The position numbers were made by a program, and so were the translations under genes. A DNA stretch of 52,177 nt from a virus (taxonomy: Duplodnaviria > Heunggongvirae > Uroviricota > Caudoviricetes). Each line of letters opens with the position of its first letter. Within the stretch, counting starts at the first letter, position 1. The DNA is taken from IMG/VR virus record IMGVR_UViG_2563366958_000018; one strand, given 5' to 3'. Shown in pieces: positions 1 to 52,177 of the stretch. The notes below the pieces were generated by a model. That model saw only the letters and a program-made list of their open reading frames with translations, was not told where the DNA came from and searched no databases.

Positions 1-3000
1 ATGCCTGTCGACTTTCTAACCTCTGACCAAAAACAGAATTACGGTTGTTATGCTGCAGAACCTAATGACGTGCAACTGGCGCGCTATTTTCATCTTGATG
101 AACGGGATCTGGCCTTCATTAACCAACGACGGGGCAAACATAATAGGCTGGGCATTGCGCTTCAGCTCACCACAGCCCGTTTTCTGGGAACATTTCTGAC
201 GGATTTAACTCAGGTTCTGCCTGGTGTTCAACATTTTGTCGCGGTACAGCTTAATATCCACCGTCCAGAAGTTCTCTCCCGCTATGCTGAACGGGACACT
301 ACCCTTAGAGAACATACTGCATTAATTAAGGAATATTACGGCTATCATGAATTTGGTGATTTTCCATGGTCTTTCCGCCTGAAGCGTCTGCTATATACCC
401 GGGCGTGGCTCAGTAATGAGCGACCGGGTCTGATGTTTGATTTTGCCACTGCATGGTTGCTTCAAAATAAGGTATTACTGCCCGGAGCAACCACACTAGT
501 ACGTCTCATCAGTGAAATTCGTGAAAGGGCAAATCAGCGGCTGTGGAAAAAGCTGGCCGCACTGCCGAACAAATGGCAGGCAGCTCAAGTGATGGAGCTT
601 CTGGTCATTCCGGAAGGTCAGCGTGTATCAGCACTGGAACAGTTGAAAAAAGGCCCTGTTACAGTCAGTGGACCTGCGTTTAATGAGGCGCTGGAACGAT
701 ATATCCGATTACGAAGTCTTGAGTTTTCCCGACTGAACTTTTCCGGTCTGCCTGCCATTCAACTGCGTAATCTGGCTCGTTATGCTGGCATGGCGTCGGT
801 AAAATATATCGCTCGAATGCCACAGCAGAGAAAGCTTGCTGCACTTACTGCATTCGTTAAAGCACAGGAAATAACGGCATTAGACGATGCCGTTGATGTG
901 CTTGATATGCTAATTCTGGACATTATCCGCGAAGCAAAGAAAACCGGGCAAAAAAAAAGACTCAGGACACTGAAAGATCTTGATCAGGCCGCATTGTTAC
1001 TGGCGCGGGCATGTGCATTGTTGCTGGATGATAATACAGATGTCCCAGATCTCAGGCAGGTTATCTTCAAGTGCGTACCCAAAAACAGACTGGCAGAATC
1101 TGTAAGCAAGGTTAATGAACTTGCTCGTCCACAGAACAATAATTTCCATGACGAAATGGTTGAGCAGTACGGTCGGGTTAAACGTTTTCTTCCGGCGGTG
1201 TTGCGGGACCTGCATTTCCGTGCGGCACCGGCAGGTGAACATGTACTGGCTGCGATTCATTATCTGGCAGAACTGAATGGTTCGAAAAAGCGCATCCTTG
1301 ATGATGCGCCTGAACATATTATCACCGGTCCCTGGAAACGCCTCGTATACGATGCGGAGGGACGGATACAGCGTGCAGGTTATTCACTATGTTTGCTGGA
1401 ACGCCTTCAGGATGCACTGCGCCGCCGGGACATCTGGCTTGAAAACAGTGATCGCTGGGGAGATCCTCGCGAGAAGTTGTTGCAAGGTGAAGAGTGGCAG
1501 ACTCAGCGTATTCCTGTCTGTCGGGCACTGGGACATCCTGTCGATGGACGTAAAGGTGTGCAACAACTGGCTATTCAGCTGGATGAGACCTGGAAAGCCG
1601 TGGCATCACGATTTGAAAAGAATGCGGAAGTTCATATCTGTAATGAAGGTAAATATCCATCCCTGACTATCAGTTGTCTGGAGAAACAGGAAGAGCCACC
1701 ATCATTGCTTCGTCTAAATAATCGGATCAAACAGCTACTCCCACCGGTAGATTTAACGGAACTGTTACTTGAGATAGATGCCCAGACAGGATTTACACAT
1801 GAGTTTGCGCATGTCAGTGAATCTGGTGCTCGAGCGCAAGATTTGCACATCAGTTTATGTGCGGTATTGATGGCTGAAGCCTGTAATATCGGACTGGAGC
1901 CGCTGATAAAGCACAATATACCAGCACTGACCCGCCATCGGCTCAGTTGGGTGAAACAGAATTACCTTCGTGCAGAAACGCTGGTCAGCGCCAATGCCCG
2001 CCTGGTTGATTTTCAGTCCACACTGGAGCTTGCTGGTCGTTGGGGAGGTGGAGAAGTGGCATCAGCTGACGGCATGCGCTTTGTCACACCAGTGAAGACC
2101 ATCAACTCAGGATCTAACAGAAAATATTTTGGTTCTGGACGAGGCATCACCTGGTATAACTTCGTATCTGATCAGTACTCTGGGTTCCATGGCATTGTGG
2201 TACCCGGTACATTACGGGATTCGATTTTTGTACTGGAAGGACTTCTTGAGCAGCAGACAGGGCTGAATCCAGTTGAAATCATGACAGACACTGCGGGTAG
2301 CAGCGATATTATTTTCGGTCTGTTCTGGCTACTGGGGTATCAGTTTTCCCCCCGGCTTGCCGATGCAGGTGAGGCGGTGTTCTGGCGGGTGAATAAATCG
2401 GCAAACTACGGAGTACTGGATAAGTTGGCCCGAGGATATGCAGATCTGTCAAAAGCGGAGAGTCAGTGGGATGAGATGATGCGAACCGCTGGTTCGCTGA
2501 AGTTGGGTACAATTCATGCGTCAGAACTCATTCGCTCTTTACTGAAAAGCTCGCGCCCATCAGGACTGGCACAGGCAATTATGGAAGTAGGGCGTGTAAA
2601 CAAAACGCTATATCTCCTCAATTATATTGATGATGAAGATTATCGTCGGCGGATCCTGACGCAGCTTAATCGAGGAGAAGGCCGCCACGCTGTGGCTCGT
2701 GCGATTTGTTACGGACAACGCGGAGAGATCAGAAAGCGTTATCGTGAAGGGCAGGAAGATCAACTGGGGGCGCTGGGCCTGGTTACTAATGCAGTGGTTC
2801 TGTGGAACACGCTCTATATGGAGGAAGCGTTGAGCTGGATGCGCCGTAATGGCGAAGAAATTATAGATGAAGATATCGCTCGGCTATCTCCCCTGATGCA
2901 CGGGCATATCAATATGTTGGGCCATTATACATTCACGTTGCCAGAGGATATTTTAAAAGGGGAACTGAGAGCTCTAAATTTAAATATAAACAACGAATTA

Positions 3001-3009
3001 TCTCCTTAA
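1..3009 (+). CDS. tnpA: Tn3-family transposase TnpA (Tn1000/gamma-delta-like), 1002 aa
   Basis: Full-length ORF starting MPVDFLT; conserved Tn3-family TnpA blocks (RPGLMFD, GGGEVASADGMRFV, LSPLMHGHINMLGHY); stop codon lies inside the terminal IR as in Tn3-family elements. Confidence 0.9.
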   Translation: MPVDFLTSDQKQNYGCYAAEPNDVQLARYFHLDERDLAFINQRRGKHNRLGIALQLTTARFLGTFLTDLTQVLPGVQHFVAVQLNIHRPEVLSRYAERDTTLREHTALIKEYYGYHEFGDFPWSFRLKRLLYTRAWLSNERPGLMFDFATAWLLQNKVLLPGATTLVRLISEIRERANQRLWKKLAALPNKWQAAQVMELLVIPEGQRVSALEQLKKGPVTVSGPAFNEALERYIRLRSLEFSRLNFSGLPAIQLRNLARYAGMASVKYIARMPQQRKLAALTAFVKAQEITALDDAVDVLDMLILDIIREAKKTGQKKRLRTLKDLDQAALLLARACALLLDDNTDVPDLRQVIFKCVPKNRLAESVSKVNELARPQNNNFHDEMVEQYGRVKRFLPAVLRDLHFRAAPAGEHVLAAIHYLAELNGSKKRILDDAPEHIITGPWKRLVYDAEGRIQRAGYSLCLLERLQDALRRRDIWLENSDRWGDPREKLLQGEEWQTQRIPVCRALGHPVDGRKGVQQLAIQLDETWKAVASRFEKNAEVHICNEGKYPSLTISCLEKQEEPPSLLRLNNRIKQLLPPVDLTELLLEIDAQTGFTHEFAHVSESGARAQDLHISLCAVLMAEACNIGLEPLIKHNIPALTRHRLSWVKQNYLRAETLVSANARLVDFQSTLELAGRWGGGEVASADGMRFVTPVKTINSGSNRKYFGSGRGITWYNFVSDQYSGFHGIVVPGTLRDSIFVLEGLLEQQTGLNPVEIMTDTAGSSDIIFGLFWLLGYQFSPRLADAGEAVFWRVNKSANYGVLDKLARGYADLSKAESQWDEMMRTAGSLKLGTIHASELIRSLLKSSRPSGLAQAIMEVGRVNKTLYLLNYIDDEDYRRRILTQLNRGEGRHAVARAICYGQRGEIRKRYREGQEDQLGALGLVTNAVVLWNTLYMEEALSWMRRNGEEIIDEDIARLSPLMHGHINMLGHYTFTLPEDILKGELRALNLNINNELSP

Positions 3010-3042: not shown

Positions 3043-3843
3043 GATCTTTACGAGGTTGACGTAATAGTCATGGGGTAAGTTTGTCATGGTGATAGTTCCC
3101 TTAAAGGTTAAGGATACTCACCACCGTCTGGTTCCAATCATTGGGTGGTGAGACGTACAGGGTTGGAACTACCGGTCACCATGGAATCCGGCGAGTCTTA
3201 CGACTCCCCCGCACGCCCCACCATAATTTGGGTGTAGCAGTGCTTTACGCATAAAAAAACCGCTAACGCGGTATGCGCCATGATGATTATCGGGGTTCCA
3301 ATCCCGACCGTAGATTTTGCTACGGCTCGGAAAGTGTCCACCAATGGCGCATTCATGTCAATACGGCGGGATTTTAACAGAGACAACCACATAGCGTGGG
3401 TTTATTGGTAGGCAGAAACAAAAAAACCGCCCTATTGAGGACGGTTCTTTCGTGCTGATCGGATTCGCGGTCCTTTCAGCATAACGTCGTTGTATAAACA
3501 ACCACGCAAGCACAAGCAGCAAGTTAATTTTACCCAAAAGGTAATAATAGTCCACTATTATGCTTCAAAAAATTGTGGTTCTTGTTGTGCCTGCAAACTC
3601 ACAGATTGTGGGTAGGTTACTGATTTTGTGAAAATAAACGAGTTTTTTCGTTTAATTTCTTTCCTATTACTAATCTTAAAATAATCGTAAAATACCTGTG
3701 GACCTTCCCGCCGATTCGCACCCGGGCACCGACTTTAGGGGAGGATTCTCCGTTGCCGTACATGCAAGCACAAGCAGCCGTGCTTGCTCTCGCGTTGTTT
3801 TCGTCGGTGGGGATGCCGTGAAACGGCCTGTAAGGGCCATACA

Positions 3844-3966
3844 ATGAAAAAATACTGTATGTGTATTTTTATCGTTGTTACTGGGGCTTTGTTTACGCCA
3901 CATGGGGAGGGTTGGAAGATTACTGATAACGCTCTGAATGTGACGATAAACATTAGCAGCAAGTAG
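3844..3966 (+). CDS. Small hydrophobic ORF (40 aa, MKKYCMCIFIVVTGALF...), hypothetical
   Basis: ATG with weak upstream purine tract; single hydrophobic segment; followed directly by a strong hairpin plus T-run. Confidence 0.2.
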   Translation: MKKYCMCIFIVVTGALFTPHGEGWKITDNALNVTINISSK

Positions 3967-3971
3967 CGATT

Positions 3972-3995
3972 AGGCCCCTTCGGGGGCCTTTTTTA
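3972..3995 (+). terminator. Rho-independent terminator
   Basis: AGGCCCC-TTCG-GGGGCCT stem followed by TTTTTT. Confidence 0.5.
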
Positions 3996-4216: not shown

Positions 4217-4465
4217 TTACTTCTGGTTGTATTGAGCCTTGAGTAACTCAAAAGATTTTGTCAGCACTTCTTTCAATGACATATCCATTGAGCTGGCGAA
4301 CGTTTTGTACTCGCGTTTAAATTCAGGGTCGACGTTAAACGCCATTTGTGCCCCACCTGATTTGGTTCTGGTTGGCGTTTCAGTCGGGTCGAAAACCTGC
4401 GGTTGTTCGATCGATGGCGGTACGCCTTTGCTGTTCTTCTTTGGTGGTTTTGATGGTCCGGCCAT
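4217..4465 (-). CDS. ParG-like ribbon-helix-helix centromere-binding partition protein
   Basis: 82 aa, disordered basic N-terminus and C-terminal RHH-like segment (MAFNVDPEFKREYKTFASSMDMSLKEVLTKSFELLKAQ); directly downstream of ParA-like ATPase; strong RBS. Confidence 0.55.
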   Translation of the reverse strand: MAGPSKPPKKNSKGVPPSIEQPQVFDPTETPTRTKSGGAQMAFNVDPEFKREYKTFASSMDMSLKEVLTKSFELLKAQYNQK

Positions 4466-4477
4466 GTGTATCCCCTC

Positions 4478-4508
4478 TTATATAAATCTATAAAACTATA
4501 ATTATATA
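4478..4508. repeat. AT-rich palindromic repeat block (TATAAATCTATA / TATAATTATATA) between the two partition genes
   Basis: Same motif family as at 5187-5287 and five other intergenic sites. Confidence 0.5.
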
Positions 4509-5177
4509 TTACGCGGCAGTAGTCAGAGCCTCAAGCTGGTTGATAATCCCCTGAATAACGTCGTCTGCCTTTTTGCGTGGCGCAACGTATGAGCATTCAA
4601 TGAGGCTTAAGCCCTTATCCTGAGCTTTGCTCAGAGCTGGCTTGTGGGGAATGTACTTATCGACAACAAAGTATGGCGTATTAGCTAGGTACTCTTGGGC
4701 TTCAATGTAGTCGGCTTCGTTTTCAGCCGCGCCTGAGAACACCATGCAAATTTTCTTGATTGGCACACCCTTTTTAACGATGCCGTGAGCTGTGTTAACG
4801 GTGGTTTCTAGGTCATCGGTAGAGAATCTGGTTGGCAAAATAACCATATCCAGAAATTCAGAGAGCTTCGGTACTGATTCAGATGCGTAGGCACCGCCAT
4901 CGACGATAACCAGGTCGTATACTTCTGATTCGATGATTTTCTGGACTTGTGATGGCGTGCCGCACGGCTGCGCCGCGATTGCAGGTTCGATATTGTTGGC
5001 CATTCTGCGTTGTACCCAACGCGTTACCGTTCCGTTAAGCACATCCATATCGATCAGGCATACATTCCAGCCGGCCTTTGCATAAGCAACTGCTAAAGCA
5101 CGGGCAATTGTTGATTTGGTTACGCCGCCTTTTCCGTTGAAAATACCTACAGAGATAGTCATTTGTCGAGACTCCAT
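4509..5177 (-). CDS. ParA/ParF-type partition ATPase (small ParA)
   Basis: Deviant Walker A (GIFNGKGGVTKST) near N-terminus, 222 aa; alternative start at 5162 (MTISV...) has the better RBS. Confidence 0.85.
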   Translation of the reverse strand: MESRQMTISVGIFNGKGGVTKSTIARALAVAYAKAGWNVCLIDMDVLNGTVTRWVQRRMANNIEPAIAAQPCGTPSQVQKIIESEVYDLVIVDGGAYASESVPKLSEFLDMVILPTRFSTDDLETTVNTAHGIVKKGVPIKKICMVFSGAAENEADYIEAQEYLANTPYFVVDKYIPHKPALSKAQDKGLSLIECSYVAPRKKADDVIQGIINQLEALTTAA

Positions 5178-5186
5178 GTGTTTGGT

Positions 5187-5287
5187 TATATAATTCTATA
5201 AATCTATATTTATAGAACGAGGTAAGCATAACCAACTTTTTGGCGGATGAAAAGCGTTTTATATAATTATATAAATCTATAATCATG
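5187..5287. promoter_or_regulatory. Candidate centromere/operator region upstream of the partition operon (two AT-rich palindromic repeat blocks)
   Basis: TTATATAATTCTATAAATCTATATTTATAGA (5187-5217) and TTTATATAATTATATAAATCTATAATCATG (5258-5287) immediately upstream of the ParA start. Confidence 0.45.
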
Positions 5288-5312
5288 TAAGCGGGCGTTA
5301 GCCCGCTTTCAG

Positions 5313-5722: not shown

Positions 5723-5737
5723 ACCACAAAATGTGGT
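5723..5737. promoter_or_regulatory. CI-type operator (ACCAC-AAAAT-GTGGT), OL-like
   Basis: Perfect 5+5 inverted repeat matching the operator consensus seen in the cI-cro intergenic region. Confidence 0.5.
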
Positions 5738-6436: not shown

Positions 6437-6473
6437 GTCTCATCAATCGTGAATGGTGGGTTATTTATACATT

Positions 6474-6591
6474 ACCACATTTAGTGGTTTTCACATGGTA
6501 AGACGAGAGGTGGACCACAAATAGAAGGTTATTTTTTGTTTCGCCCATTGAAAAACTCACGATATGTGGTTTTAATACCACATATCGTGGT
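6474..6591. promoter_or_regulatory. OR-like operator region: three ACCAC-N5-GTGGT palindromes between cI and the Cro-like gene
   Basis: ACCACATTTAGTGGT (6474-6488), CTCACGATATGTGGT (6556-6570), ACCACATATCGTGGT (6577-6591). Confidence 0.6.
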
Positions 6592-8251: not shown

Positions 8252-8580
8252 GATATACCGGCTTTCGCAAACCAGCGACAAGGAAAAGCAAATACGGCAA
8301 TAAAAAAACGGTTGTCGATGATATCGCTTTTGATAGCAAAAAAGAGGCTGATTACTACTGCGAACTGAAGCTACTGAGAAAAGCTGGCCGCGTTGTGACG
8401 TTTCTTATGCAGGTGCCTTTTCATCTGCCAGGTGGTGTCGTTTATAAACTTGATTTCATGGTGTTTTATGACGATGGGACGATTGATTGTGTCGACACTA
8501 AAGGTGTGCGAACAGACGTCTACATCATGAAGAAAAAGCAGGTAGAGGCGCTTTATCCCGTCACGATACGGGAGATCTGA
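8248..8580 (+). CDS. DUF1064-like phage protein
   Basis: YGNKKT and FDSKKEA motifs typical of DUF1064 as recalled. Confidence 0.55.
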   Translation: MRYTGFRKPATRKSKYGNKKTVVDDIAFDSKKEADYYCELKLLRKAGRVVTFLMQVPFHLPGGVVYKLDFMVFYDDGTIDCVDTKGVRTDVYIMKKKQVEALYPVTIREI

Positions 8581-8583
8581 ACA

Positions 8584-8961
8584 GTGAGACGCGATCTGGA
8601 TAGCTTGTTTGAGCTATGGGCGCTGTGGGTGCGCAATGGCTGCAACGCCCGTAGCGGTTTCGCGTCGATGTTAGAAATGATGATGGTTACGCGCTGCCAG
8701 TTTACCGGAGGGGGCGGCGCACCAAATGACTCACTGGAAACCAGTATAGAGGGAGCGGTGACGGCCCTCACGGTAGTTGATGAGACTGCGGCGCTGGTTG
8801 TCCGAATTGAATACGGGGCGTGGGAGATTCGGGGCCTCGACATAAATGCACCGCATATTGATAAAGCCCACGCCCTTTCTCTTAGCCTCAGACAGTATCG
8901 CCGGAAGCTGGCAAAAGCCAGGGCGTATGTTGTCGACTATTTGAAAAAGCGAAGAGAGTAA
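8584..8961 (+). CDS. Possible Q-like late antiterminator (short Q family)
   Basis: 125 aa, GTG start, position after nin-like genes and N-terminal pattern (LFELWALW) reminiscent of short Q proteins; weak. Confidence 0.35.
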   Translation: MRRDLDSLFELWALWVRNGCNARSGFASMLEMMMVTRCQFTGGGGAPNDSLETSIEGAVTALTVVDETAALVVRIEYGAWEIRGLDINAPHIDKAHALSLSLRQYRRKLAKARAYVVDYLKKRRE

Positions 8962-9010
8962 AAGTGTCATTTTGAGCTGTTTTGATGGTGTGTAGACATC
9001 GGGAACATCG

Positions 9011-9130
9011 AAAATCTATAAATATATAATTATAGATTTATATAAAAAGTGCTTTACAGGTGGGAAAAAATTTCCTATGGTTATACCCGAAACCGAGCGA
9101 TACCCGCCCTGGTTAAACCGGAGAAATCTG
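9011..9130 (+). promoter_or_regulatory. Conserved promoter/operator/leader cassette, copy 1
   Basis: AT-rich palindrome + TTTACA-N17-TATGGT + 50-nt leader ending GGAG-N8-ATG; near-identical copies at 15968-16081 and 48828-48941. Confidence 0.5.
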
Positions 9131-10198
9131 ATGAATAAACAAGTAATTATTTCTGACTGGATCAACAACCCTAACAGCCTGTTAAGCACTGATACTGGCT
9201 ACCTATTACGCCATGTTAATGGTCGTATGGTCAAAAGCGATGAGCACGAAACCTTTTTCTTTGTTGAAGACGATGGGCGTATCTATGAGGATGGTTACTC
9301 TTATGAAGCCCAAACTGGTTGTATCCCTGCGGAGCTGGTGGATGTAACAGAAGATCTGCGCAAAGCATGGCTTGAACAGCAGCAGCGCGGAGATGATTAC
9401 GTAAACACCTATCAGGAACGCCAGAACGCGCGTCTTGCCCGATATATTGCTCGTGCAGAAAAAGCCAGAAAAGAAGGTGCGGTAGCGCATAAGCGAGCGC
9501 ATGACCTGTTGGATGTGATCCCGTTAGGCCAGCCGATTTTAGTTGACCATTATAGCGCGAAAGGCCATCGCCGCCGTTTGTCTAAAGCTGATGCGTTATT
9601 CAGAAAAGCGTTTGTTGAATGCGAAAGTAAAGCATCACACTACGAGAGCAAAGCCGCAGGTGTTGGTCGTAATGGAATTTCGTCTGATGATCCTGATGCG
9701 CTATTTAAGTTGCTTCGTAAGCTGCAAGGCTGCATGAAGTCACACGTCAAAATGAAGGCCGCAAATAAGGCCATTCGCAAATACAAAAAAGACCAAATAC
9801 AGCAGCTTTCTGCATTAATCGATCTCAGGTTTACAGAAAGCGAAGCCAAAGAGTTACTGGCCGGAGATTTCTGTGGGCGCATCGGATTCCCTTCATACGC
9901 ACTGAGCAACAATAACGCCGAAATCAAACGACTACAGAGCCGTATTAAGGAGCTTGAATCGGTCAAGTCTGTAACAGGAGCACAGCGCGAAGAATACGAC
10001 GGCTTTTCTATGGAGATAGATCCAGAGGATAACCGCATCCTGTTTTATTTCCCTGGCAAACCAGAGGCAAACATTCGTTCGCTGCTTAAATCACGCGCCT
10101 TTAAGTGGAGTCCAACCCGTAATGCATGGGTTCGCAAGATTACTCCAAACGCCCTGGCTGATGCCCGATATCTGAAAGAATCGCTATTGAAAGCCTGA
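9131..10198 (+). CDS. DUF3560-like protein (355 aa)
   Basis: GQPILVDHYSAKGHRRR and C-terminal FKWSP...NAWVR segments resemble DUF3560; start taken at the ATG after the conserved leader rather than the in-frame ATG at 9077. Confidence 0.55.
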   Translation: MNKQVIISDWINNPNSLLSTDTGYLLRHVNGRMVKSDEHETFFFVEDDGRIYEDGYSYEAQTGCIPAELVDVTEDLRKAWLEQQQRGDDYVNTYQERQNARLARYIARAEKARKEGAVAHKRAHDLLDVIPLGQPILVDHYSAKGHRRRLSKADALFRKAFVECESKASHYESKAAGVGRNGISSDDPDALFKLLRKLQGCMKSHVKMKAANKAIRKYKKDQIQQLSALIDLRFTESEAKELLAGDFCGRIGFPSYALSNNNAEIKRLQSRIKELESVKSVTGAQREEYDGFSMEIDPEDNRILFYFPGKPEANIRSLLKSRAFKWSPTRNAWVRKITPNALADARYLKESLLKA

Positions 10199-10275
10199 CA
10201 GTAAGCCTACGGCGGGATGTCTCCCGCCGTATATAGAATTATATATTTATATAAATGTATAAGGACGCCTCGACA

Positions 10276-10557
10276 ATGAAACGCAAAATTATTAACCCCC
10301 AAGATGTGATTAATTTCCTGACCGATCACCCATGTTCAAAAGTGGACGTAATCGCGGAGCACATTGGTGTGTCGCAGAACTCTATGCGTTGCAGACTGAG
10401 AAGCATGGTTGCCGAAGGACAGATAACAACCAGGAAAATAAATGGTTGCCTGTACTACTCCGCTAAACCGGAATTGCCATTTGGCATGAATCCTAACTCC
10501 ATGTTGTTTAACACCTTATTAGCCAAAGTTAAGCCGTTGAGAGGGGCTGTGGCATGA
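10276..10557 (+). CDS. Winged-helix DNA-binding protein (93 aa)
   Basis: HTH-like segment VDVIAEHIGVSQNSMRCRLRSMVAEGQI; RBS AAGGA upstream. Confidence 0.45.
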   Translation: MKRKIINPQDVINFLTDHPCSKVDVIAEHIGVSQNSMRCRLRSMVAEGQITTRKINGCLYYSAKPELPFGMNPNSMLFNTLLAKVKPLRGAVA

Positions 10558-10919
10558 GCATCAAAACACATACCGGAATAATCATTACCAATGATGGTGA
10601 GAAAAAAGTGAAGTTGCGCGAGACGCCGACAACCTGGTGTGTTGGTCCGAAAGAAACATATCGCAAGGAAGATGGCCGTCGTTGTGGGGCACCACTTTCC
10701 CGCCGTCGCCTCCTTTTGAGCACGATAAAACCTATCGGGCAGGTTGAGCAACCAACGACTCCGGTAACGAAGATTTCAGACAAGAGTCTGGCAAACCTGA
10801 TCGCCGATGCGGACAAGGTGCTGGAGCGGAACACCCCCGTTGCAGATGAGGAATGGTGGCAGGATTTCCGAGCCGCAATGCTAGAGCTTCAGGAACGTCG
10901 TCGGGAGGAGTTGAAGTGA
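10554..10919 (+). CDS. Hypothetical protein (121 aa)
   Basis: ATGA overlap with upstream gene. Confidence 0.45.
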   Translation: MSIKTHTGIIITNDGEKKVKLRETPTTWCVGPKETYRKEDGRRCGAPLSRRRLLLSTIKPIGQVEQPTTPVTKISDKSLANLIADADKVLERNTPVADEEWWQDFRAAMLELQERRREELK

Positions 10920-11107
10920 GCAAGAAAAATGCCGGATGGGTCAGGCCAATGAAGGCGAATAAACATCATTATTTTAATGAAGGTGAAGTAACCAGCATTT
11001 GCGGCCGTTGGATGTATTTTGGTGATTACCGTGAGCCAGACACTTTTGAGAGTCCTGATGATTGCGTGTCTTGTCGCCGGAAATTGAACAAGGTGGCTTC
11101 TAAATGA
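10916..11107 (+). CDS. Small Cys-containing hypothetical protein (63 aa, GTG start)
   Basis: GTG with GGGAGGAG RBS; C-x2-C near C-terminus. Confidence 0.35.
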   Translation: MSKKNAGWVRPMKANKHHYFNEGEVTSICGRWMYFGDYREPDTFESPDDCVSCRRKLNKVASK

Positions 11108-11796
11108 AAGAACGTGGTGTTGTTTTTAATGACGATATGGTTAGGGCCATCCTCGAAGGAAGGAAGACGCAGACTCGCCGACCTGTAAAAAATGTCAGGG
11201 CCGATAACTGCCTGGTTATCCGTAAACCGACAAAGAAACGCAATGGTGTCTATACCCACGTTATGGATGCACCGGAACATGGTTTATGCCCGTTCGGTAA
11301 CGTTGGTGATCGCATATGGGTCCGTGAAGCGTGGGCGATATTAGGCAATGAGGATGGTTGCAGTGTGGACTGGAACGACAACCTTTGTCGTGGCGATGAG
11401 AAGAACGCAGCAAGGATTTATCGGGCCAGTTGTGAGCAAAAGTCTGGTGATTACGGTTTATGGTCGATACCCGATGATGCCGACTGGAAACCTCACACTG
11501 TGAATGAAAAGTTTGATGGCGGGTGGCGTCCATCAATTCACATGCCGCGCTGGGCTTCACGTATTTTGCTGGAAATTACCGACGTGCGTGTGGAACGGCT
11601 GCATGACATGAGCGAGGCAGATGCTAAAGCGGAAGGCGCATCTCCGGCGACGTACAAGATTACACCGCCGGAAGCTGTTTATCGCGTTGGCTTTGGTGAT
11701 ATCTGGCGCGGTATTTACGGGCAAGAGAACTGGCTATCTAACCCGTGGGTATGGGTAATTGAGTTTAAACGTATTCAGGGGGCAACCAGTGAGTAA
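11104..11796 (+). CDS. ASCH/PUA-like domain protein (230 aa)
   Basis: N-terminal AILEGRKTQTRRP matches the GxKxxExR-type ASCH signature. Confidence 0.45.
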   Translation: MKERGVVFNDDMVRAILEGRKTQTRRPVKNVRADNCLVIRKPTKKRNGVYTHVMDAPEHGLCPFGNVGDRIWVREAWAILGNEDGCSVDWNDNLCRGDEKNAARIYRASCEQKSGDYGLWSIPDDADWKPHTVNEKFDGGWRPSIHMPRWASRILLEITDVRVERLHDMSEADAKAEGASPATYKITPPEAVYRVGFGDIWRGIYGQENWLSNPWVWVIEFKRIQGATSE

Positions 11797-12046
11797 TTCC
11801 GCACGGCTACAGCTTGGTTTTTCACCGCTATCAAAAACCATCGTGTTGGCCAAAATGCGCGATTTAGGTGACGGAACAAAACGCCGTGTAGGCAATGATC
11901 GCGGTCGTGATGTAACCAACGAGGCCGCACAACTCGTTTGGCATCTTGTCATGGCAGAAGGCGGTGAAATCAATTGGGAGCTGGATGATGGTTCTCGCAT
12001 GGTGTTAAGGGCAGAAAAGCAGGGGGCAAACGATGAAAAACCGTAA
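11789..12046 (+). CDS. Hypothetical protein (GTG start; alternative TTG at 11759)
   Basis: ORF in operon context; start uncertain. Confidence 0.3.
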   Translation: MSNSARLQLGFSPLSKTIVLAKMRDLGDGTKRRVGNDRGRDVTNEAAQLVWHLVMAEGGEINWELDDGSRMVLRAEKQGANDEKP

Positions 12047-12225
12047 AGCAAAGATGCTTATTTCCCGTGTATACAGACTTTGCTACCCCAGCCAGTGGTT
12101 GAGAGTTAGCAATCGCCGTGTGGTGTTGTTTTCATTTTCTGGAATTGCCAGAGAGGGAGTCAAAGATAAGCGCAGCGCGGCGCAAAACCGCTGGAAAAAC
12201 CACTTGCGTACTAAAGGAGAGTGAT

Positions 12226-12435
12226 ATGGCTGTTGCCGCAAGTTACACCATGCATCTCTATTGTGACTGCCGCCAGTGTACGGAAGGTGTATATCCAGTA
12301 CCAGACTTCGGTGAATATATCGGTACGTCATGGGCTGGCTGTGCAAAAGAGGCACGTAAAGATGGGTGGCGAATAAGCGCCGACAAAACGCGTGCTTTTG
12401 CGCCCGGGCATAAAGTTTTGAGGATTAACAAATGA
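12226..12435 (+). CDS. Small Cys-rich hypothetical protein (69 aa, CDCRQC motif)
   Basis: ATG with AAGGAGA RBS 5 nt upstream. Confidence 0.35.
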   Translation: MAVAASYTMHLYCDCRQCTEGVYPVPDFGEYIGTSWAGCAKEARKDGWRISADKTRAFAPGHKVLRINK

Positions 12436-12839
12436 CCACTTTAACCGACAAAGAACTGATTAAAGAAATCAAAGAGCGCATAGGCAGCCTGGACGTCCGA
12501 GACAATATTGAGCGCCGTGCTTATGAAATTGCTCTGGCATCACTGGAAGCAGAGCCGGTAGCGTGGGAATGCGGTGAAAACATAATCCTGTTTAACCCTG
12601 ACACAGTTGAAGCATACGCAAAACGTGCGGAAATATCACCTAAACCTCTATTCTCCGCGCCGCCAACGGTGGTAGTGCCGGATGATGGGCGCGAAAAGTT
12701 CGAAGCACTTGTCAGGTTTCATGCGGGTGATAAAAACCATGAAACATTATTGATTCGTGCCAACGAAGGGATGAATTACCAGGACCCGAATGTTGATCTG
12801 GCGTGGATATTCTGGAAGTCCAGTCGTGAACATATATAA
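12432..12839 (+). CDS. Hypothetical protein (135 aa)
   Basis: ATGA overlap with upstream ORF. Confidence 0.45.
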   Translation: MTTLTDKELIKEIKERIGSLDVRDNIERRAYEIALASLEAEPVAWECGENIILFNPDTVEAYAKRAEISPKPLFSAPPTVVVPDDGREKFEALVRFHAGDKNHETLLIRANEGMNYQDPNVDLAWIFWKSSREHI

Positions 12840-13180
12840 GCTGTAGTGAGAATCCATGCGATTACGAGCAGTATTCAGATATTCAGAGCGGGTAATGAAG
12901 CACATACAACCGAAAACATGGCAGAAACTGGACTCTATGGGAGCTAAGTTGGAGAAGATTACTCAACTTAAGCAGTGGCATATCGGCGAATATTATGGAA
13001 GTCCTGGTCGGGATGTTCGGTTGGTAAAAAGTTGAACATTGTTTTTTTATTGATCGATTAACCACGATATGAAGGTTTTTTTATGGAAAAACCTTGTTTT
13101 AGATGGTAACTGGGTGTAGTGTTTCATTTAACGTAGTAAAACTGCGTTAAGCGATTACCGCGTAATTTGTTGCTTTATGA

Positions 13181-13211
13181 AGCCCTGCCTTTTTCGGCGG
13201 GGCTTTTTTTT
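13181..13211 (+). terminator. Rho-independent terminator immediately upstream of the lysis cassette
   Basis: AGCCCTGCC-TTTTTC-GGCGGGGCT stem then a run of eight T. Confidence 0.5.
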
Positions 13212-14707: not shown

Positions 14708-14831
14708 TACCGCCTGTGATTGGGTAAAGCCCATCTACCTGACTGATCACGACATCGATGTTATGGACCGCCAGACAAAGAAAGATATTCTGGCTCATAA
14801 CAGGGCATGGGAAATCAACTGCCGAAAGTAA
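14622..14831 (+). CDS. o-spanin (Rz1-like lipoprotein), overlapping the i-spanin 3' end in another frame
   Basis: Signal peptide with lipobox LIAS-C, Pro-rich mature part. Confidence 0.6.
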   Translation: MYSRVLTIWLMTMLIASCGSRGSVPVVVDTACDWVKPIYLTDHDIDVMDRQTKKDILAHNRAWEINCRK

Positions 14832-15000
14832 TATATATTTCTATAATTATATAAATATATAGTTACAACATTCTATGCGCTTTTCTCATGGGCGCACGCA
14901 TCAACCATGTTTGTCTGATATGCCGCCGCGCCCAAAAATCCTGAATTTATTGGCTGGGATTTTCGTGCGCGGCGCCACACCAGACAAACAAATCAAATAT

Positions 15001-15383: not shown

Positions 15384-15971
15384 ATGGAGGCAATTGCATT
15401 GTTTAATCTGATTTATGCAGATCCCCCCTGGGAATACAAAGATAAGTGTAAGGATGGGAATCGTGGAGCTGGTTTTAAGTATCCAACGATGAAAGCTGAG
15501 GATATTGCTCGTATTCCTGTCTGGCAGCTTGCTAATCCTGAATCGTGTTTGTTGGCCATGTGGTGGGTTCCGACTCAGCCAGAAGAAGCGTTGCTGGTGG
15601 TGAAAGCATGGGGATTCAGGCTTATGACCATGAAGGGCTTCACATGGAACAAATGTGGTAGCCGACAACCAGATAAGCTGGTGATGGGGATGGGGCATAT
15701 GACTCGTGCAAACAGTGAAGATTGCTTGTTTGCGGTAAAAGGCAAATTGCCGACCCGCCTTGATGCGGGGATCATTCAGTCGTTTACATCGCCTCGTCTG
15801 GAGCATTCTCGGAAGCCTGATGTGGTTCGTGACAAGCTGGTAAGGCTGTTAGGTGATGTTCCTCGTATTGAGCTGTTTGCTCGCGGTGATTTACCTGATG
15901 GTTGGCATGGCTGGGGCAACCAGTGCAATGGAGGTATCCAGTTGCATGATGCTCTCTGGCAAGTGGCATAG
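15384..15971 (+). CDS. MT-A70-family N6-adenine DNA methyltransferase (orphan)
   Basis: Catalytic DPPW motif (IYADPPWEY), 195 aa; no adjacent restriction endonuclease. Confidence 0.8.
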   Translation: MEAIALFNLIYADPPWEYKDKCKDGNRGAGFKYPTMKAEDIARIPVWQLANPESCLLAMWWVPTQPEEALLVVKAWGFRLMTMKGFTWNKCGSRQPDKLVMGMGHMTRANSEDCLFAVKGKLPTRLDAGIIQSFTSPRLEHSRKPDVVRDKLVRLLGDVPRIELFARGDLPDGWHGWGNQCNGGIQLHDALWQVA

Positions 15972-16081
15972 AATTATATAATTATAGATTTATATAAAAA
16001 GTGCTTTACAGGTGGGAAAAAATTTCCTATGGTTATACCCGAAACCGAGCGATACCCGCCCTGGTTAAACCGGAGAAATCT
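15968..16081 (+). promoter_or_regulatory. Conserved promoter/operator/leader cassette, copy 2
   Basis: Identical to copy 1 over ~100 bp. Confidence 0.5.
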
Positions 16082-16352
16082 GATGAAAGTACAAGACCGT
16101 GAAGTAGTAAAAAACCTCCTGCAATACCTGACCTCAAAAAACCTGACGGGCAGCGTTGAGTTCCGTGAAGCGTTAAAACATTTCAACGTCACTACGGTTT
16201 ATCGTTGGGAAAACAAACATTCTGAAAGACCGTATGTGGTGGATGTTTTTGCGCCTGATATTGAGTGCGGTTTTGAGCGTCATTCGTTCAAGGAGAAACA
16301 TTCTGCTGATTTTTTTTGTGAGGTTGTATGTGCGGCAGGAGATGATGAGTGA
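16082..16352 (+). CDS. Hypothetical protein (90 aa)
   Basis: First ORF after cassette copy 2. Confidence 0.45.
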
Positions 16353-16549: not shown

Positions 16550-16572
16550 ACCGTAACGATAACGAACAACGA

Positions 16573-16598
16573 GCCTCGGCAATTGCCGGGGCTTTTTT
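16573..16598 (+). terminator. Rho-independent terminator
   Basis: GCCTCGGC-AATT-GCCGGGGC then TTTTTT. Confidence 0.5.
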
Positions 16599-17262: not shown

Positions 17263-17309
17263 CTCTTACAGCCTCGCGTGTCGCGGGGCTTTTATTTTCA
17301 GGTGATGTT

Positions 17310-17954: not shown

Positions 17955-18578
17955 ATGACAAAACATCTTAATGTGGTTTCTTTACCACTTTCTGTGTTGA
18001 TTGGTTATGAAAAGAACGCTCGCACACACTCCGTGGAGCAGGTAGATCAGATTATTGCCAGCATACAGGAGTACGGATGGACTAATCCGATCCTGATAGA
18101 CGAGAACAACGTTGTAATTGCTGGTCATGGTCGAATTGCTGCGGCCACTCAGTTGGGGATGGATGATGTTCCCTGCATTGTTCTGGCTGGGCTAACGGAG
18201 AATCAGAAGAAGGCATATCGTCTGGCCGACAACCGTATTCCGCTGAATGCTGGTTGGGATGAAGAGTTGTTAAGCGCGGAGCTTGCAGATCTTGCGGCCG
18301 ATGATTTTGCTCTGGACTCAATTGGTTTTACTCAGCGCGAACTGGATAACTTATTGAGTGCGGCGGTCTACGATGACACAGAGGGTATGGATATCCCATT
18401 TGAGAAGGATGAGGCCAAATCAGGCGTAAAAGTTCAGTACCTGTCATTTGGAGGTCATAAAATCCCGGCAACGGATGAGGAAGCGGATCGTTTTGACTGC
18501 GCGGTGTCTCGTTATGTTGATGATAATGGCAGCTATATCGGATTTGTATCCGCATTGCTGGCTGGGGAGGTGTGCTGA
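17955..18578 (+). CDS. ParB/Srx-like nuclease-domain protein (207 aa)
   Basis: N-terminal ParB-type fold with GHGR arginine motif (VIAGHGRIAAA); paralogue of 21244-21834. Confidence 0.7.
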   Translation: MTKHLNVVSLPLSVLIGYEKNARTHSVEQVDQIIASIQEYGWTNPILIDENNVVIAGHGRIAAATQLGMDDVPCIVLAGLTENQKKAYRLADNRIPLNAGWDEELLSAELADLAADDFALDSIGFTQRELDNLLSAAVYDDTEGMDIPFEKDEAKSGVKVQYLSFGGHKIPATDEEADRFDCAVSRYVDDNGSYIGFVSALLAGEVC

Positions 18579-19951
18579 TGCTTCACCTCAATTACGACAT
18601 AACGCACCTACGCGGCGCGGAATATAACCCGCGTTTTATCGGTGAGGATGATCTTGCGAGGCTGGCGGAAAGCGTCAGGGAGCTGGGGCTTGTGAAGCCA
18701 TTGATAGTGCGCGGCGATTTGCTGGTGGCGGGACACCAAAGGACGAAGGCGCTACGTAAGTTGGGAATAACGCGTGCTGCGGTGTATGTGTTGCCCTGTG
18801 AAACGACGGTATACGACGAAGTACGGTTTAACCAACTGCATAACGGAACGGATTTTGATAGCGGAGATGAGCGTTGCAGGGTGTCCGGTCTGGAAGATAA
18901 GCATGGTTTTGTTCAGGTATCGGCAAGCCAGATCTCAGGCAATATGCGCGCGAAAATGGCATATGTTCGAAAGAACATAGCGGAACTGGTTATCAAGTAT
19001 GGTCCGTGGGGTGGTTGTGTTGCTACTCAGTCTGGTGAGGTTATTCACTGTGCTCAGTATGCATTAGCAGCGAAAATGACGCGCACACCGCTAACGGTGT
19101 TTGTGATCCCTGATGTTGAGAAGGAAAAATACCAAAGTTATCTGAATAAAACTTATGGTGTATTTGAGTATTCTCATCTGGAGAAAACAACATACATCCA
19201 GACGTATGCGCAGCTTATGCGGTTGCGTAATGGTGGCAGCCTGAAATCAAATCTGTATGAGTCGTTGATCCTCCCGATCGTTGCCAAGACGCCAAGAGGA
19301 ATTGATTTTGGTTCGGGGCAGGGAGACTACGCGCGAATGCTCAGGGCAAAGGGATATAACCTGCATGATCTTGAGCTTTTTCGCCGTAAGGGCGCTGGAA
19401 ACACTCTGGATAGGGCTGCAACAAACCGAATGATTGATACGCTGGTGGACGACTTAAAAACGCGAGGGCGTTACGACTACGTGATTTGCGATAGCGTTTT
19501 GAACTCGGTCGATAGTGTCGAGGCTGAATGGTCCGTTCTGACGGTTCTGAAAGGCCTGTGTAAAGCTGGTGGGTCAATATTCTTTTCTGGTCGTAGCCGT
19601 GGAGAGCTGGAAACAGTCCTGAAGCAAACACAAGCGGCGAGTTCCAAAAGCCGGCTTTATTTTATTGATCATAACGGTTTTACCGCGTTGTACCGGAAGG
19701 GGCACTGGTTTTACCAGAAGTTTCACTCTGATGATGAAGTGAAGCAGTTGTGTCGTGTACATGGTTTCAGGATTAAGCGGTCAATATTCAACTGTAATAG
19801 CTGGTATTTGCACGTCATTAACGATGATTCCCTTAGTTGGGCGAGTCTGGAGAAAGCTGTTCGTTTTGAGTTTGAGTTGCCGTTGCCTGGTGGTTCAACA
19901 ATCGGACGATCTGATGATGTGCTGGCGGCTTTCCGGCCGTTGATTAAGTAG
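18578..19951 (+). CDS. ParB/Srx-like N-terminal domain fused to a class I SAM-dependent methyltransferase domain
   Basis: N-terminal LVAGHQRTKA ParB motif; C-terminal motif I GIDFGSGQGDYA and acidic post-I motif (YVICDSVLN); no DPPY/NPPY motif seen. Confidence 0.6.
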   Translation: MLHLNYDITHLRGAEYNPRFIGEDDLARLAESVRELGLVKPLIVRGDLLVAGHQRTKALRKLGITRAAVYVLPCETTVYDEVRFNQLHNGTDFDSGDERCRVSGLEDKHGFVQVSASQISGNMRAKMAYVRKNIAELVIKYGPWGGCVATQSGEVIHCAQYALAAKMTRTPLTVFVIPDVEKEKYQSYLNKTYGVFEYSHLEKTTYIQTYAQLMRLRNGGSLKSNLYESLILPIVAKTPRGIDFGSGQGDYARMLRAKGYNLHDLELFRRKGAGNTLDRAATNRMIDTLVDDLKTRGRYDYVICDSVLNSVDSVEAEWSVLTVLKGLCKAGGSIFFSGRSRGELETVLKQTQAASSKSRLYFIDHNGFTALYRKGHWFYQKFHSDDEVKQLCRVHGFRIKRSIFNCNSWYLHVINDDSLSWASLEKAVRFEFELPLPGGSTIGRSDDVLAAFRPLIK

Positions 19952-43599: not shown

Positions 43600-44472
<873 letters not shown>

Positions 44473-44642: not shown

Positions 44643-45222
<580 letters not shown>

Positions 45223-48820: not shown

Positions 48821-48827
48821 CGCTCAT

Positions 48828-48941
48828 AGAATTATATAATTATAGATTTATATAAAAAGTGCTTTACAGGTGGGAAAAAATTTCCTAAGGTTATACCCGA
48901 AACCGAGCGATACCCGCCCTGGTTAAACCGGAGATAACCCG
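48828..48941 (+). promoter_or_regulatory. Conserved promoter/operator/leader cassette, copy 3
   Basis: Identical to copies 1 and 2 except a T-to-A change (TAAGG vs TATGG) and a divergent last 10 nt. Confidence 0.5.
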
Positions 48942-49322
48942 ATGAGCATGATTAAAATCCGCAAAAACGCTTTCCTTAAAATTCAAACTATCCTGGCTGG
49001 TTCTGTTGGCGTGATTTGCCGTTCTTCTTCAAGCCGCATCGATGACGGCTACGATGATGAGTATCGTTTGTCCTCGTGCGATGAGGCTTTAACCTGGCTG
49101 AAGGAGAATCAGGAACGTGCCCAGGTATATCTGGAAACAGAGAACGGCAATCAGATGCTCCGTATTAGCGGTCGTTATGGATTTGAAACCACATTCATGG
49201 CCTATTTTAATCAGGCTTACTTTGACAAGGAGTTGGCCTGGTACACTGATCGCATGAGCAAAAGCGAGCCAGCCCCGATTACACCGCCGAACGATAAACC
49301 ATTTTTATTCCTCGTTAAGTAA
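48942..49322 (+). CDS. Hypothetical protein (126 aa)
   Basis: First ORF after cassette copy 3. Confidence 0.45.
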   Translation: MSMIKIRKNAFLKIQTILAGSVGVICRSSSSRIDDGYDDEYRLSSCDEALTWLKENQERAQVYLETENGNQMLRISGRYGFETTFMAYFNQAYFDKELAWYTDRMSKSEPAPITPPNDKPFLFLVK

Positions 49323-51034: not shown

Positions 51035-52177
51035 TTATGGTCTGCTTTTCTGTGCCAGCTTATCAGCACATGTTTTTATCAGATCCTGTAGTGTCTTGGC
51101 TGGCAGGTTTGCATCCAGTACGCTGAGTATGCTGTTGTGATCAGCTTGGTCGACTACTTTGCCTGTCGGTGGTAGTAGCTTGAGCTGAGGATTCAGGTTT
51201 TCGTCAAAGCTGATAAGTGCTCTGGCGTTTCTGAGCAGATCAAGAAGTAAGGCTGATATCACATTTTCCTGAGTCATTGCTGGCAGATTTAGCGCCGCTT
51301 TGGTTTTCCCTGTTGCCTTGTCAAACGCCTTGATTAGTTCCTTCCTGTAGTTCGGTTCCGTTAATAGCCGATTATGCTCTGTTGCCGCGCGGATAATCGT
51401 TTTTTCCTGGTACAGTCGTTTAGCCAGATCACGCTCGTACTGTGTTTTTAACACGCTGCTGATAGCGTTAAAGGCTTCAATGTAGGCCAGCTTGATATCT
51501 TTCACGCTTGGACCGTCGATGCTCTCCATGAGCAAGGTAAATCCGTCTTTTGTCATGCGATAGATTGTTATTTCGCGGTCGCTTCCTTCCAGCGGTCGTT
51601 GCTCTTTAAAGAAGTGACGCGCCGCAGCCGTGCGAGGAATGCGTAGCGCATCGATGGCCATAACGATGGAATTGTTTGTGGTGCTGAATGCTTGGGCAAC
51701 ATCGGCTGAGGTTGTGAGTGGCTCGTTGTTGCACACTTTAATGTAAAACATCGGTTTGGCGTTGAGCGTATCGACAACCTCACGAGCATTGTTTGGCGAG
51801 ACGGTTACGGTCGCGGCCGTTTGCGCGTTCTGGCTGAAATAGCAGTCTTCCAGCCGTTCGAATACATCCCACGCCTGATCGGTTTCGAGCATTTTGGCGT
51901 GACGTGCAGCCCCGCGTTCTGTCCAGAGAATGAGGGAGCGGGCATTTTTACCAACTAACCCGATTGTTTCAGGTCTGTTCTTGAACTCGCGTAATTCGTT
52001 TTTTTCAATTTTAAAGTAATGCTTTCCGGCTATGAATCGCGTCGTGTTGTTCAGAAAGTTATCAGAAATGTTTTTGATTTTTGTTCCGTATAACTGCGCC
52101 AGAAGTTCAGTTGTAATAACGGGGATCTGGTTATGCAAGATAGGCTGTAGGGTGTTAACGGTCGGAAGCGTTTTCAT
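51035..52177 (-). CDS. Phage antirepressor (AntA/ORF6N-type N-terminal domain, Rha-like central region)
   Basis: 380 aa; N-terminal ITTELLAQLYGTKIKNISDNFLNN...RFIAGKHYF; start codon is the last three bases of the window so the true start may lie beyond it. Confidence 0.7.
   Translation of the reverse strand: MKTLPTVNTLQPILHNQIPVITTELLAQLYGTKIKNISDNFLNNTTRFIAGKHYFKIEKNELREFKNRPETIGLVGKNARSLILWTERGAARHAKMLETDQAWDVFERLEDCYFSQNAQTAATVTVSPNNAREVVDTLNAKPMFYIKVCNNEPLTTSADVAQAFSTTNNSIVMAIDALRIPRTAAARHFFKEQRPLEGSDREITIYRMTKDGFTLLMESIDGPSVKDIKLAYIEAFNAISSVLKTQYERDLAKRLYQEKTIIRAATEHNRLLTEPNYRKELIKAFDKATGKTKAALNLPAMTQENVISALLLDLLRNARALISFDENLNPQLKLLPPTGKVVDQADHNSILSVLDANLPAKTLQDLIKTCADKLAQKSRP

Follow-up and report, generated by a model that had tools for sequence, protein, structure and literature searches.

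A mosaic block of accessory genes 5' of the lysis-gene terminator in an Escherichia coli phage-plasmid

What kind of cargo does a phage carry between its antiterminator gene and its lysis genes, and when would such cargo be expressed? The question is raised by a run of small, closely spaced genes (9131-13035) in the 52,177-nt stretch of viral DNA analysed here (IMG/VR record IMGVR_UViG_2563366958_000018; hereafter the window), which lies between a Q-like gene and a lysis cassette of holins, GH108 endolysin and spanins. An earlier note on this DNA had placed a gene cluster here on the + strand, with the lysis cassette 3' of it, and both are present. The same note took the setting for a lambdoid phage and the genes for cargo under late-promoter control. 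The element is a phage-plasmid, however. A conserved non-coding block and the only strong terminator (13179-13206) follow the operon, directly ahead of the holin, and the operon has a promoter cassette of its own; both points speak against late-promoter control in the stx sense. With somewhat better than even confidence, we believe that the block is early or establishment accessory cargo situated 5' of the antitermination gate, a mosaic of independent genes and not stx-like late cargo.

Transcription signals around the block

The argument turns on the following features:

8584-8961, + strand: 'Q-like' gene (125 aa), which closes the early rightward operon
9013-9046, no strand: array of four 8-bp repeats (TATAKAWW), ending ~6 bp 5' of the -35 hexamer
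9017-9135, + strand: promoter-leader cassette, copy 1, with -35 TTTACA (9053-9058), -10 TATGGT (9076-9081), GGAG and the ATG of the DUF3560 gene
10230-10263, no strand: another array of 8-bp repeats, within the 77 nt that separate the DUF3560 gene from the winged-helix (wHTH) gene
13037-13150, + strand: conserved non-coding block, nearly invariant at 13104-13150, with a hairpin at 13128-13150
13179-13206, + strand: strong intrinsic terminator (11-pair stem, 7 of the pairs G-C; T8 tail); the holin starts 19 nt further on, at 13225

The terminator stem is kept in relatives, with one fully compensatory pair and several G-C/G-U changes, and two distant relatives carry a strong terminator, just before the holin in L120 (16720-16740) and 5' of a holin-like gene in L124 (15314-15337). 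No convincing terminator was found by the terminator scan within the operon, and there is no terminator-like site between the end of the Q-like gene at 8961 and position 9131, so the block could be reached by read-through from the early operon. Two further strong terminators (16571-16594 and 17270-17290) lie in the co-directional stretch that leads from the second copy of the promoter cassette to the ParB-like, terminase and virion genes. With predicted strong terminators before the holin and within the late region, the late genes would need processive antitermination; as read from these sites, the late operon must be transcribed either by terminator-resistant RNA polymerase or from further promoters. 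Since the block lies 5' of its terminator, its own expression would be independent of antitermination. The non-coding block next to the terminator is conserved in a three-way alignment with Salmonella and Klebsiella-type relatives though the lysis genes differ, and its hairpin has a perfect 10-bp stem; it may be a late promoter and late-operon start, an antiterminator loading site or a small RNA.

The antiterminator itself would be the product of the Q-like gene. The gene closes the early operon and is separated by a terminator from the late and lysis genes, which is where a Q-type gene would stand, and a genome-wide scan for the family returned this single locus. The profile phrog_79 ('anti-termination protein Q-like') is matched by 9/24 members of the family (best E 5.4e-4), and the window protein itself aligns to it colinearly at E 0.091, with residues 1-122 on profile positions 18-139 of 156. 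QuuD of E. coli is itself a member of phrog_79 and PF06530, and one relative of the Q-like protein reaches PF06530 at E 0.074. The direct hhalign comparison with QuuD aligns an N-terminal LERWGAW-type motif at a probability of 1%, which is not significant. There is also a weak full-length match to NCBIfam PA0613_fam (E 2.5e-4), a family that adjoins the holin in the R-pyocin cluster according to the literature, where we found no functional work on it. Thus, the name that the earlier note gave this gene is plausible on its position and its remote similarity to phrog_79, whereas the Pfam, hhalign and PDB comparisons do not bear it out.

Transcription of the block itself could start at the cassette that ends at its first gene. 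This cassette of ~120 bp occurs three times in the window (9017-9135, 15967-16087 and 48825-48945), at 95-98% identity and between unrelated flanks, and each copy stops at the ATG of an unrelated gene, encoding the DUF3560 protein, an 89-aa protein and a 126-aa protein, respectively. Three copies per element are the rule among the PLSDB matches (62/65), and the E. coli, Salmonella and Klebsiella-type relatives have three copies apiece. A promoter scan finds a sigma70-like promoter in it (TTTACA, 17 nt, TATGGT; 9/12 consensus positions), and relatives that have diverged by ~10% keep the -35, a spacer dyad (GGAAA-N3-TTTCC), the -10 and a leader of ~45 nt. We considered a -10-like pause element right after the cassette -10 and rejected it, as that stretch is not conserved in relatives. 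Control of the cassette or the block by the CI-like repressor was likewise set aside, as the operator motif CACGATATGTGGT, present at the cI-PR region, is missing from the cassette and occurs at chance level in the block.

A four-repeat array stands directly 5' of the -35 in each cassette copy, and such arrays occupy eight intergenic sites: the two listed above, three that bracket parA (4477-4510, 5185-5218 and 5258-5289), and 14830-14863, 15967-15998 and 48825-48856. Matches to three consecutive units number 29 in the window, at these 8 sites, against 0.03 expected. They are not RepA iterons, as 0/8 arrays lie within 2 kb of repA. parA is followed by an 82-aa gene with a ribbon-helix-helix (RHH)-like C terminus (4217-4465, minus strand). 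The conjugative plasmid NZ_CP037908.1, which has no phage genes, carries a ParA/RHH pair of its own, with an RHH protein 39% identical, and an IS26-truncated fragment of the cassette; arrays of the same kind stand at five intergenic sites in the conjugative plasmid (L100: 1467-1498, 2941-2972, 3634-3665, 11983-12016 and 13758-13791). Taken together, we believe that the arrays are most likely binding sites or operators of a ParG/omega-like partition RHH protein, and probably serve as dispersed centromere or operator sites. If they are RHH operators, the cassettes would be repressible in the established plasmid state.

Partition proteins that act as global regulators through dispersed sites are known, among them omega of pSM19035, ParG of TP228, KorB of RK2 and the SopB sites of N15. 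The window resembles these systems in having short-repeat arrays at the par promoter and beside other promoters, and in encoding a small ParA together with a protein of 82 aa whose C terminus is RHH-like. It differs from them in its repeat unit, which is 8 bp long and very AT-rich, and in its targets, three of which are identical promoter cassettes in a phage-plasmid.

Based on these features, we propose that two routes would bring RNA polymerase into the block: read-through out of the early rightward operon, and initiation at the sigma70-type promoter cassette found three times in the genome. If the arrays are RHH operators, the cassettes would be held down in the established plasmid and would fire on entry into a naive cell. 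Transcription would end at the terminator at 13179-13206, and the holin and the ~30 kb of late genes would depend on antitermination, presumably by the remote Q21/QuuD-type protein of 8584-8961.

The same features could be arranged differently, with the cassette as a PR'-type promoter that loads the Q-like protein, so that the block would be made late, along with the lysis and virion genes. The layout does recall the start of the lambda and Stx late operons: early operon, Q-type gene, strong terminator, then holin, endolysin and spanins and a long co-directional late operon, which here has internal terminators, with a Q-like protein remotely similar to QuuD/Q21. As PR' does in lambda, cassette copy 1 follows the Q-like gene, at ~90 bp; copy 2 lies 5' of two strong terminators and the morphogenesis genes; the conserved dyad in the spacer between -35 and -10 is a candidate Q-binding element (QBE); and the remote Q-family similarity of the Q-like gene counts in favour as well. 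However, ~4.1 kb of genes separate the Q-like gene from the terminator in the window, the replicon is a plasmid-prophage that has a P2-like tail, and a QBE and a pause element were not identified. Stx phages carry their cargo beyond tR', under the control of Q; in the window it precedes the terminator, and transcription of the operon would be Q-independent even if Q were loaded at the cassette. Furthermore, the arrays of the cassette are shared with the partition locus, a fragment of the cassette is found in a conjugative plasmid that lacks phage genes and any Q-like gene, distant relatives that have the Q-like gene possess only AT-rich arrays and no promoter-leader part and yet have a terminator before the holin, and a separate, more conserved non-coding block stands directly before the terminator. 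We therefore regard late expression as unlikely, although the positions of copy 1, right behind the Q-like gene, and of copy 2, ahead of the morphogenesis genes, leave it some probability.

The phage-plasmid and its variable gene block

The window is colinear with pMB9698_3, a circular E. coli plasmid of 47.7 kb, except for two Tn3-derived segments (blaTEM-1, tnpA). Region 8500-13200 is 100% identical to that plasmid, 97-99% identical to many other E. coli plasmids of 47-52 kb and ~98% identical to the Yersinia myophages vB_YpM_39, 41 and 44, and ~65 plasmids in PLSDB match the element near-identically. The annotation of pMB9698_3 includes a P2-like contractile-tail virion module, terminase, portal and capsid genes and a lysis cassette and, further, RepA, ParA, a RelE toxin-antitoxin pair and a CI-like repressor. 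Because virion and lysis genes stand alongside RepA, ParA, the toxin-antitoxin pair and the CI-like repressor, the element is a phage-plasmid and no integrated lambdoid prophage: a ~48-52-kb E. coli element with a P2-like myovirus particle and RepA/ParA maintenance. The pSLy3 group of the literature is a distinct, SSU5-related phage-plasmid family.

Tn3 tnpA (1-3009, +), blaTEM-1 (43600-44460, -) and a truncated tnpR (44643-44975, -) lie in two segments ~7.2 kb apart; the bla segment has a 5-bp duplication of plasmid sequence on both sides, and the tnpA segment takes the place of 143 bp adjoining the immunity RNAs, relative to pMB9698_3. These RNAs score above the Rfam gathering threshold as a C4 antisense RNA of the P1/P7 immI type (3141-3228, -), isrK (3253-3326, -) and ryfA (3698-3994, +), and a Rha/ORF6N antirepressor-like gene (51035-52177, -) adjoins them, with the tnpA segment intervening in the window. 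They point to a P1-like antisense-RNA immunity layer on top of the CI-like repressor. Close to the immunity RNAs and in the stretch from the CI-like repressor to the early promoter stand inverted repeats of the type CAC-N6-TGTGGT (6470-6590, 5723-5737 and 3386-3398), with a 13-bp perfect palindrome pair at 6558-6589; these are probably repressor operators and do not occur in the cassette. Rfam matched no family in the cassette, the operon or the non-coding block. Candidate DNA-modification (anti-restriction) genes lie 3' of the lysis cassette and thus outside the block, and encode an MT-A70 methyltransferase (15384-15971), a ParB/Srx-domain protein (17955-18578) and a ParB-N/methyltransferase fusion (18572-19951).

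The block runs on the + strand throughout, and the RefSeq/PGAP annotation of pMB9698_3 (99.6-100% identical) and the open reading frame (ORF) list of the window give it nine annotated genes and one unannotated 59-aa gene:

9131-10198, + strand: DUF3560 protein of 355 aa (PF12083)
10276-10557, + strand: winged-helix (wHTH) protein of 93 aa (phrog_1687 'MarR family', E 5e-32)
10554-10919, + strand: g121 (phrog_7520, E 6e-84)
10949-11107, + strand: g52, a small Cys-containing protein, variable (phrog_2358, E 6e-30)
11104-11796, + strand: ASCH-fold protein of 230 aa (fold and GxKxxTxR octapeptide)
11789-12046, + strand: DUF7446 protein of 85 aa, variable (PF24233, E 5e-17)
12033-12224, + strand: g63, variable (phrog_1380, E 3e-34)
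12226-12435, + strand: g69, Cys-rich, variable (phrog_926, E 3e-35)
12432-12839, + strand: g135, Ea22-like at its N terminus and DUF551-like at its C terminus, variable (phrog_5117, 660, 924 and 60)
12856-13035, + strand: g59, 59 aa, the last gene of the block (phrog_9594, E 2.5e-45)

Since g59 is part of the same unit, the block ends at 13035 and not at 12839, and the eight ORFs of the earlier note become nine annotated genes in 9131-12839 plus a tenth. The translational coupling proposed for them is seen at six of nine junctions, which overlap or nearly abut (-4, -4, -8, -14, +1 and -4 nt), while the other three are gaps of 77 nt (between the DUF3560 and wHTH genes, with the repeat array), 29 nt and 16 nt. 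All ten products have PHROG matches (E 1e-30 to 1e-234), so these are true genes and not chance ORFs. Of the profile and structure searches that had been called for, those against PHROG thus placed every product in a family, whereas PDB sequence searches gave nothing significant for the DUF3560, ASCH, Q-like, RHH, wHTH, g121, DUF7446 and g69 proteins; an NCBIfam scan of all products added nothing useful beyond the PA0613-family match of the Q-like protein.

We compared the block among elements ranging from near-identical plasmids through E. coli, Salmonella and Klebsiella/Enterobacter-type elements. The gene order Ref nuclease, DUF1064, 125-aa gene, DUF3560, wHTH, g121 is constant across this family. 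DUF3560 is 68-100% identical within it (68-70% in diverged relatives) and the wHTH protein 51-100% (51-61% in diverged relatives); g121 is 57-81% identical in L013, L110 and L124. g59 is present in every family member, always directly 5' of the non-coding block, with 58-61% identity in L117 and L118. Between these flanks, g52 and the ASCH, DUF7446, g63, g69 and g135 genes may be kept, lost or exchanged even among elements with 98-100% identity elsewhere, and the interval from g121 to g59 varies from ~2 to 5.3 kb. The replacement genes mostly belong to Ead/Ea22-like, DUF551 and other unknown PHROG families; at the position of g135, relatives carry PF13935 (Ead_Ea22) or PF04448 (DUF551) genes. 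A 330-aa 'replacement' of DUF3560 in L094 proved to be merely a truncated copy. The middle of the block is a recombination hot spot between conserved left (DUF3560, wHTH, g121) and right (g59) flanks. The description of these genes as accessory cargo thus applies to the right two-thirds of the block, the content of which differs from g121 to g59 among near-identical relatives, but not to DUF3560, wHTH and g121, which are conserved and not swapped.

Distant relatives, in which the Q-like protein is 34-65% identical, retain the synteny of CI, early operon and Q-like gene. Most of them (L119-L123 and L126-L128) have no DUF3560, wHTH or g121, although L110 and L124 have a g121 homologue and some distant relatives carry DUF7446. 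In those with detected lysis genes (L110, L120, L121, L123 and L124), ~6-8 kb of other genes stand between these and the Q-like gene. As other genes still fill the slot there, it is a long-standing accessory slot, the content of which is no functional unit.

The variable middle draws on the pool of small genes that also feeds the ea, exo-xis and nin regions of lambdoid phages, P1 and D6 (ASCH, DUF7446, Ea22/DUF551-type and Cys-rich genes). Pieces of the interval have ~90% DNA identity to Stx phages (933W L0065-68), phiV10, P1 and D6; the g69 region in particular has DNA matches to 933W L0065-68, phiV10 and D6, and homologues of g69 are found in Stx phages and phiV10. Unlike those lambdoid regions, which lie in the pL operon or ahead of Q, the block sits after the Q-like gene; it also belongs to another type of replicon.

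This mosaicism bears directly on the idea, put forward by the earlier note, of a single functional module. One could imagine a dedicated pathway of nucleic-acid modification or anti-defence joining DUF3560, wHTH, ASCH and the small proteins, given the tight packing with overlapping stop and start codons and the presence of an ASCH enzyme together with DNA-binding proteins. However, near-identical relatives differ in whether they carry ASCH, DUF7446, g52, g63, g69 and g135; in 56 distant viral contigs with DUF3560, no neighbour family recurs in more than 5 loci; and the ASCH family comprises 43,260 clusters at 50% identity in many unrelated contexts. Because the genes of the block are not co-inherited, we consider a single pathway highly improbable, and we read the block as a mosaic of independently acting genes.

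A variable middle is also what one sees in defence and exclusion hot spots, and the block could be a 'moron' expressed in lysogeny, with the cassette constitutive in the plasmid-prophage, products that benefit the host through exclusion or defence, and a terminator that insulates the lysis genes. A promoter-like site and a terminator of its own are classical moron architecture, and both are predicted at the ends of the block, the left three genes of which are conserved in the family. However, PADLOC defence models gave 0 matches among ten proteins (the nine annotated block genes and the Q-like protein; g59 was left out), the arrays that abut the -35 suggest repression in the established state, and relatives of DUF3560 lie in plasmid regions expressed on entry or after SOS induction. 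A moron of this sort therefore appears quite doubtful to us, and we retain early or establishment cargo as the better account of the block.

The DUF3560, ASCH and smaller products

DUF3560 is the gene that the cassette would serve first. Its assignment is secure: PF12083 scores 108.1 bits against a gathering cutoff of 27.2 (E 4e-31; profile positions 2-124 of 124). The AF2 model (pLDDT 90) consists of a small N-terminal beta domain, a long helical hairpin bundle and a C-terminal alpha/beta domain. Homologues include fusions to the ArdC N-terminal single-stranded DNA (ssDNA)-binding domain and to LPD domains of polyvalent proteins. Homologues of DUF3560, some of them annotated as ArdC, are carried by 422 plasmids, of which 231 are conjugative; their neighbours are ParB, KorA, KleA and RadC in one setting and Rep and toxin-antitoxin genes in another. 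DUF3560 has been reported on ~1000 plasmids (PMC6965323). On pO157, the leading region harbours a member of the family, with ssb and an antirestriction gene as its neighbours, and its expression rises 5-fold with ciprofloxacin (PMC11125564). The statement of the earlier note that DUF3560 has no assigned role holds, and we found no functional work on it in the literature. Given this company of ArdC-N fusions and plasmid establishment and leading regions, a role in establishment or anti-restriction is a reasonable guess, and by analogy we infer that DUF3560 acts as an establishment factor of the plasmid leading-region kind. On the same analogy, an anti-defence or establishment role for the block is plausible.

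The comparison with the leading and establishment regions of plasmids (pO157 and other IncF plasmids, and the ArdC-like fusions on broad-host-range plasmids) rests on membership of the same Pfam family. The family as a whole supplies the further points of likeness, namely the ArdC-N fusion, the neighbours ParB, KorA, KleA and RadC, and the ssb and antirestriction genes (PMC11125564). The gene in the window differs from its plasmid homologues in being borne by a phage-plasmid, in an extra N-terminal beta domain of ~90 aa and in having no ArdC-N.

For the second large product, the ASCH call of the earlier note is confirmed by the fold, an ASCH (PUA-like) beta-barrel. No Pfam family, the ASCH model included, was matched at E<=0.01, and the PGAP label of an identical protein is 'ASCH domain-containing'. 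The octapeptide GxKxxTxR is present as G19-R-K21-T-Q-T24-R-R26, and in a set of 58 diverse homologues K21 never varies and T24, R26 and E177 are each conserved at 90% or more. The roles of the catalytic Lys, Thr and Arg of YqfB-type enzymes have been described (PMC6972931, bioRxiv 2026.02.27.708502), and hhalign places E177, at low probability, on Glu74 of YqfB. With this catalytic set retained, the protein is probably an enzyme and more than a mere reader of modified bases, and we infer from its motifs a YqfB-type amidohydrolase that would act on N4-acylated cytosine in a nucleoside, RNA or DNA. The verdict that no gene of the block can be assigned a function was thus too pessimistic for ASCH. 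Compared with the YqfB-type ASCH amidohydrolases (N4-acetylcytidine deacetylases; the 'GKTR' octapeptide group), the protein in the window is longer (230 aa vs 103 aa), is phage-borne and has a ~120-residue insertion with conserved motifs of its own (WVRExW, RPSIHMPRWASR). We found no functional work on phage ASCH proteins in the literature.

Among the smaller products, the winged-helix call is supported by the match to phrog_1687, and the protein, which is also weakly similar to FaeA and NolR/GntR, is predicted to be a local regulator; the searches turned up no functional lead for the remaining genes. The Cys-rich small proteins that had been mentioned can be seen directly in the sequence. 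g135 has no Pfam match, neither PF13935 nor PF04448, but has phrog_60, 660 and 924 in common with proteins of the Ea22 and DUF551 types. g59, which is absent from the RefSeq annotation of the element copies, could be a small regulator.

Weighing the expression model and what it may mean

Several points weigh against early or establishment expression as we have set it out. That the cassette is a promoter, that the arrays serve as operators and that antitermination takes place is in each case read from the DNA alone. The cassette lies right after the Q-like gene, and copy 2 lies 5' of morphogenesis genes, an arrangement that would also fit a promoter for Q loading. The Q-like assignment is weak, with no Pfam match at E<=0.01, 1% in hhalign and no PDB match to Q21. 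The promoter scan finds no passing sigma70 promoter within 13037-13150, and a late-operon start there is a guess. The RHH fold of the 82-aa protein was judged from its sequence pattern, with no Pfam or PDB match, and its predicted beta-strand differs from that of the conjugative-plasmid homologue though the arrays look alike. As to the products, structure and PDB searches gave DUF3560 no solved structural relative and it has no biochemical precedent, and the alignment of E177 with YqfB E74 has a probability of just 17%.

A bolder version of our proposal, which we hold as possible but would not wager on, would make the three cassettes and their arrays the regulon of the partition RHH protein. 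A centromere-binding protein would then be a global switch: the DUF3560 operon and two further units would fire together in a naive cell, allowing zygotic induction of establishment or anti-restriction functions, followed by their silencing in the established plasmid; DUF3560 would be an establishment factor shared across elements, including the leading regions of conjugative plasmids, and ASCH might strip an N4-acyl mark from host tRNA or another nucleic acid.

Sequenced and annotated copies of the locus already exist for more than 60 plasmids and three Yersinia phages, each of its genes can be placed in a known PHROG family, and as accessory regions go, the block is an unremarkable mosaic. 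However ordinary in make-up, it offers a small, inducible and genetically tractable setting for the uncharacterised DUF3560. One of the largest phage protein families is here recognised as ASCH with the YqfB catalytic set, which provides a concrete enzyme hypothesis. As the element carries blaTEM-1, its establishment functions are of some clinical relevance. Finally, the cassette and its partition-type arrays suggest how a phage-plasmid may couple the expression of its accessory genes to the state of the plasmid.

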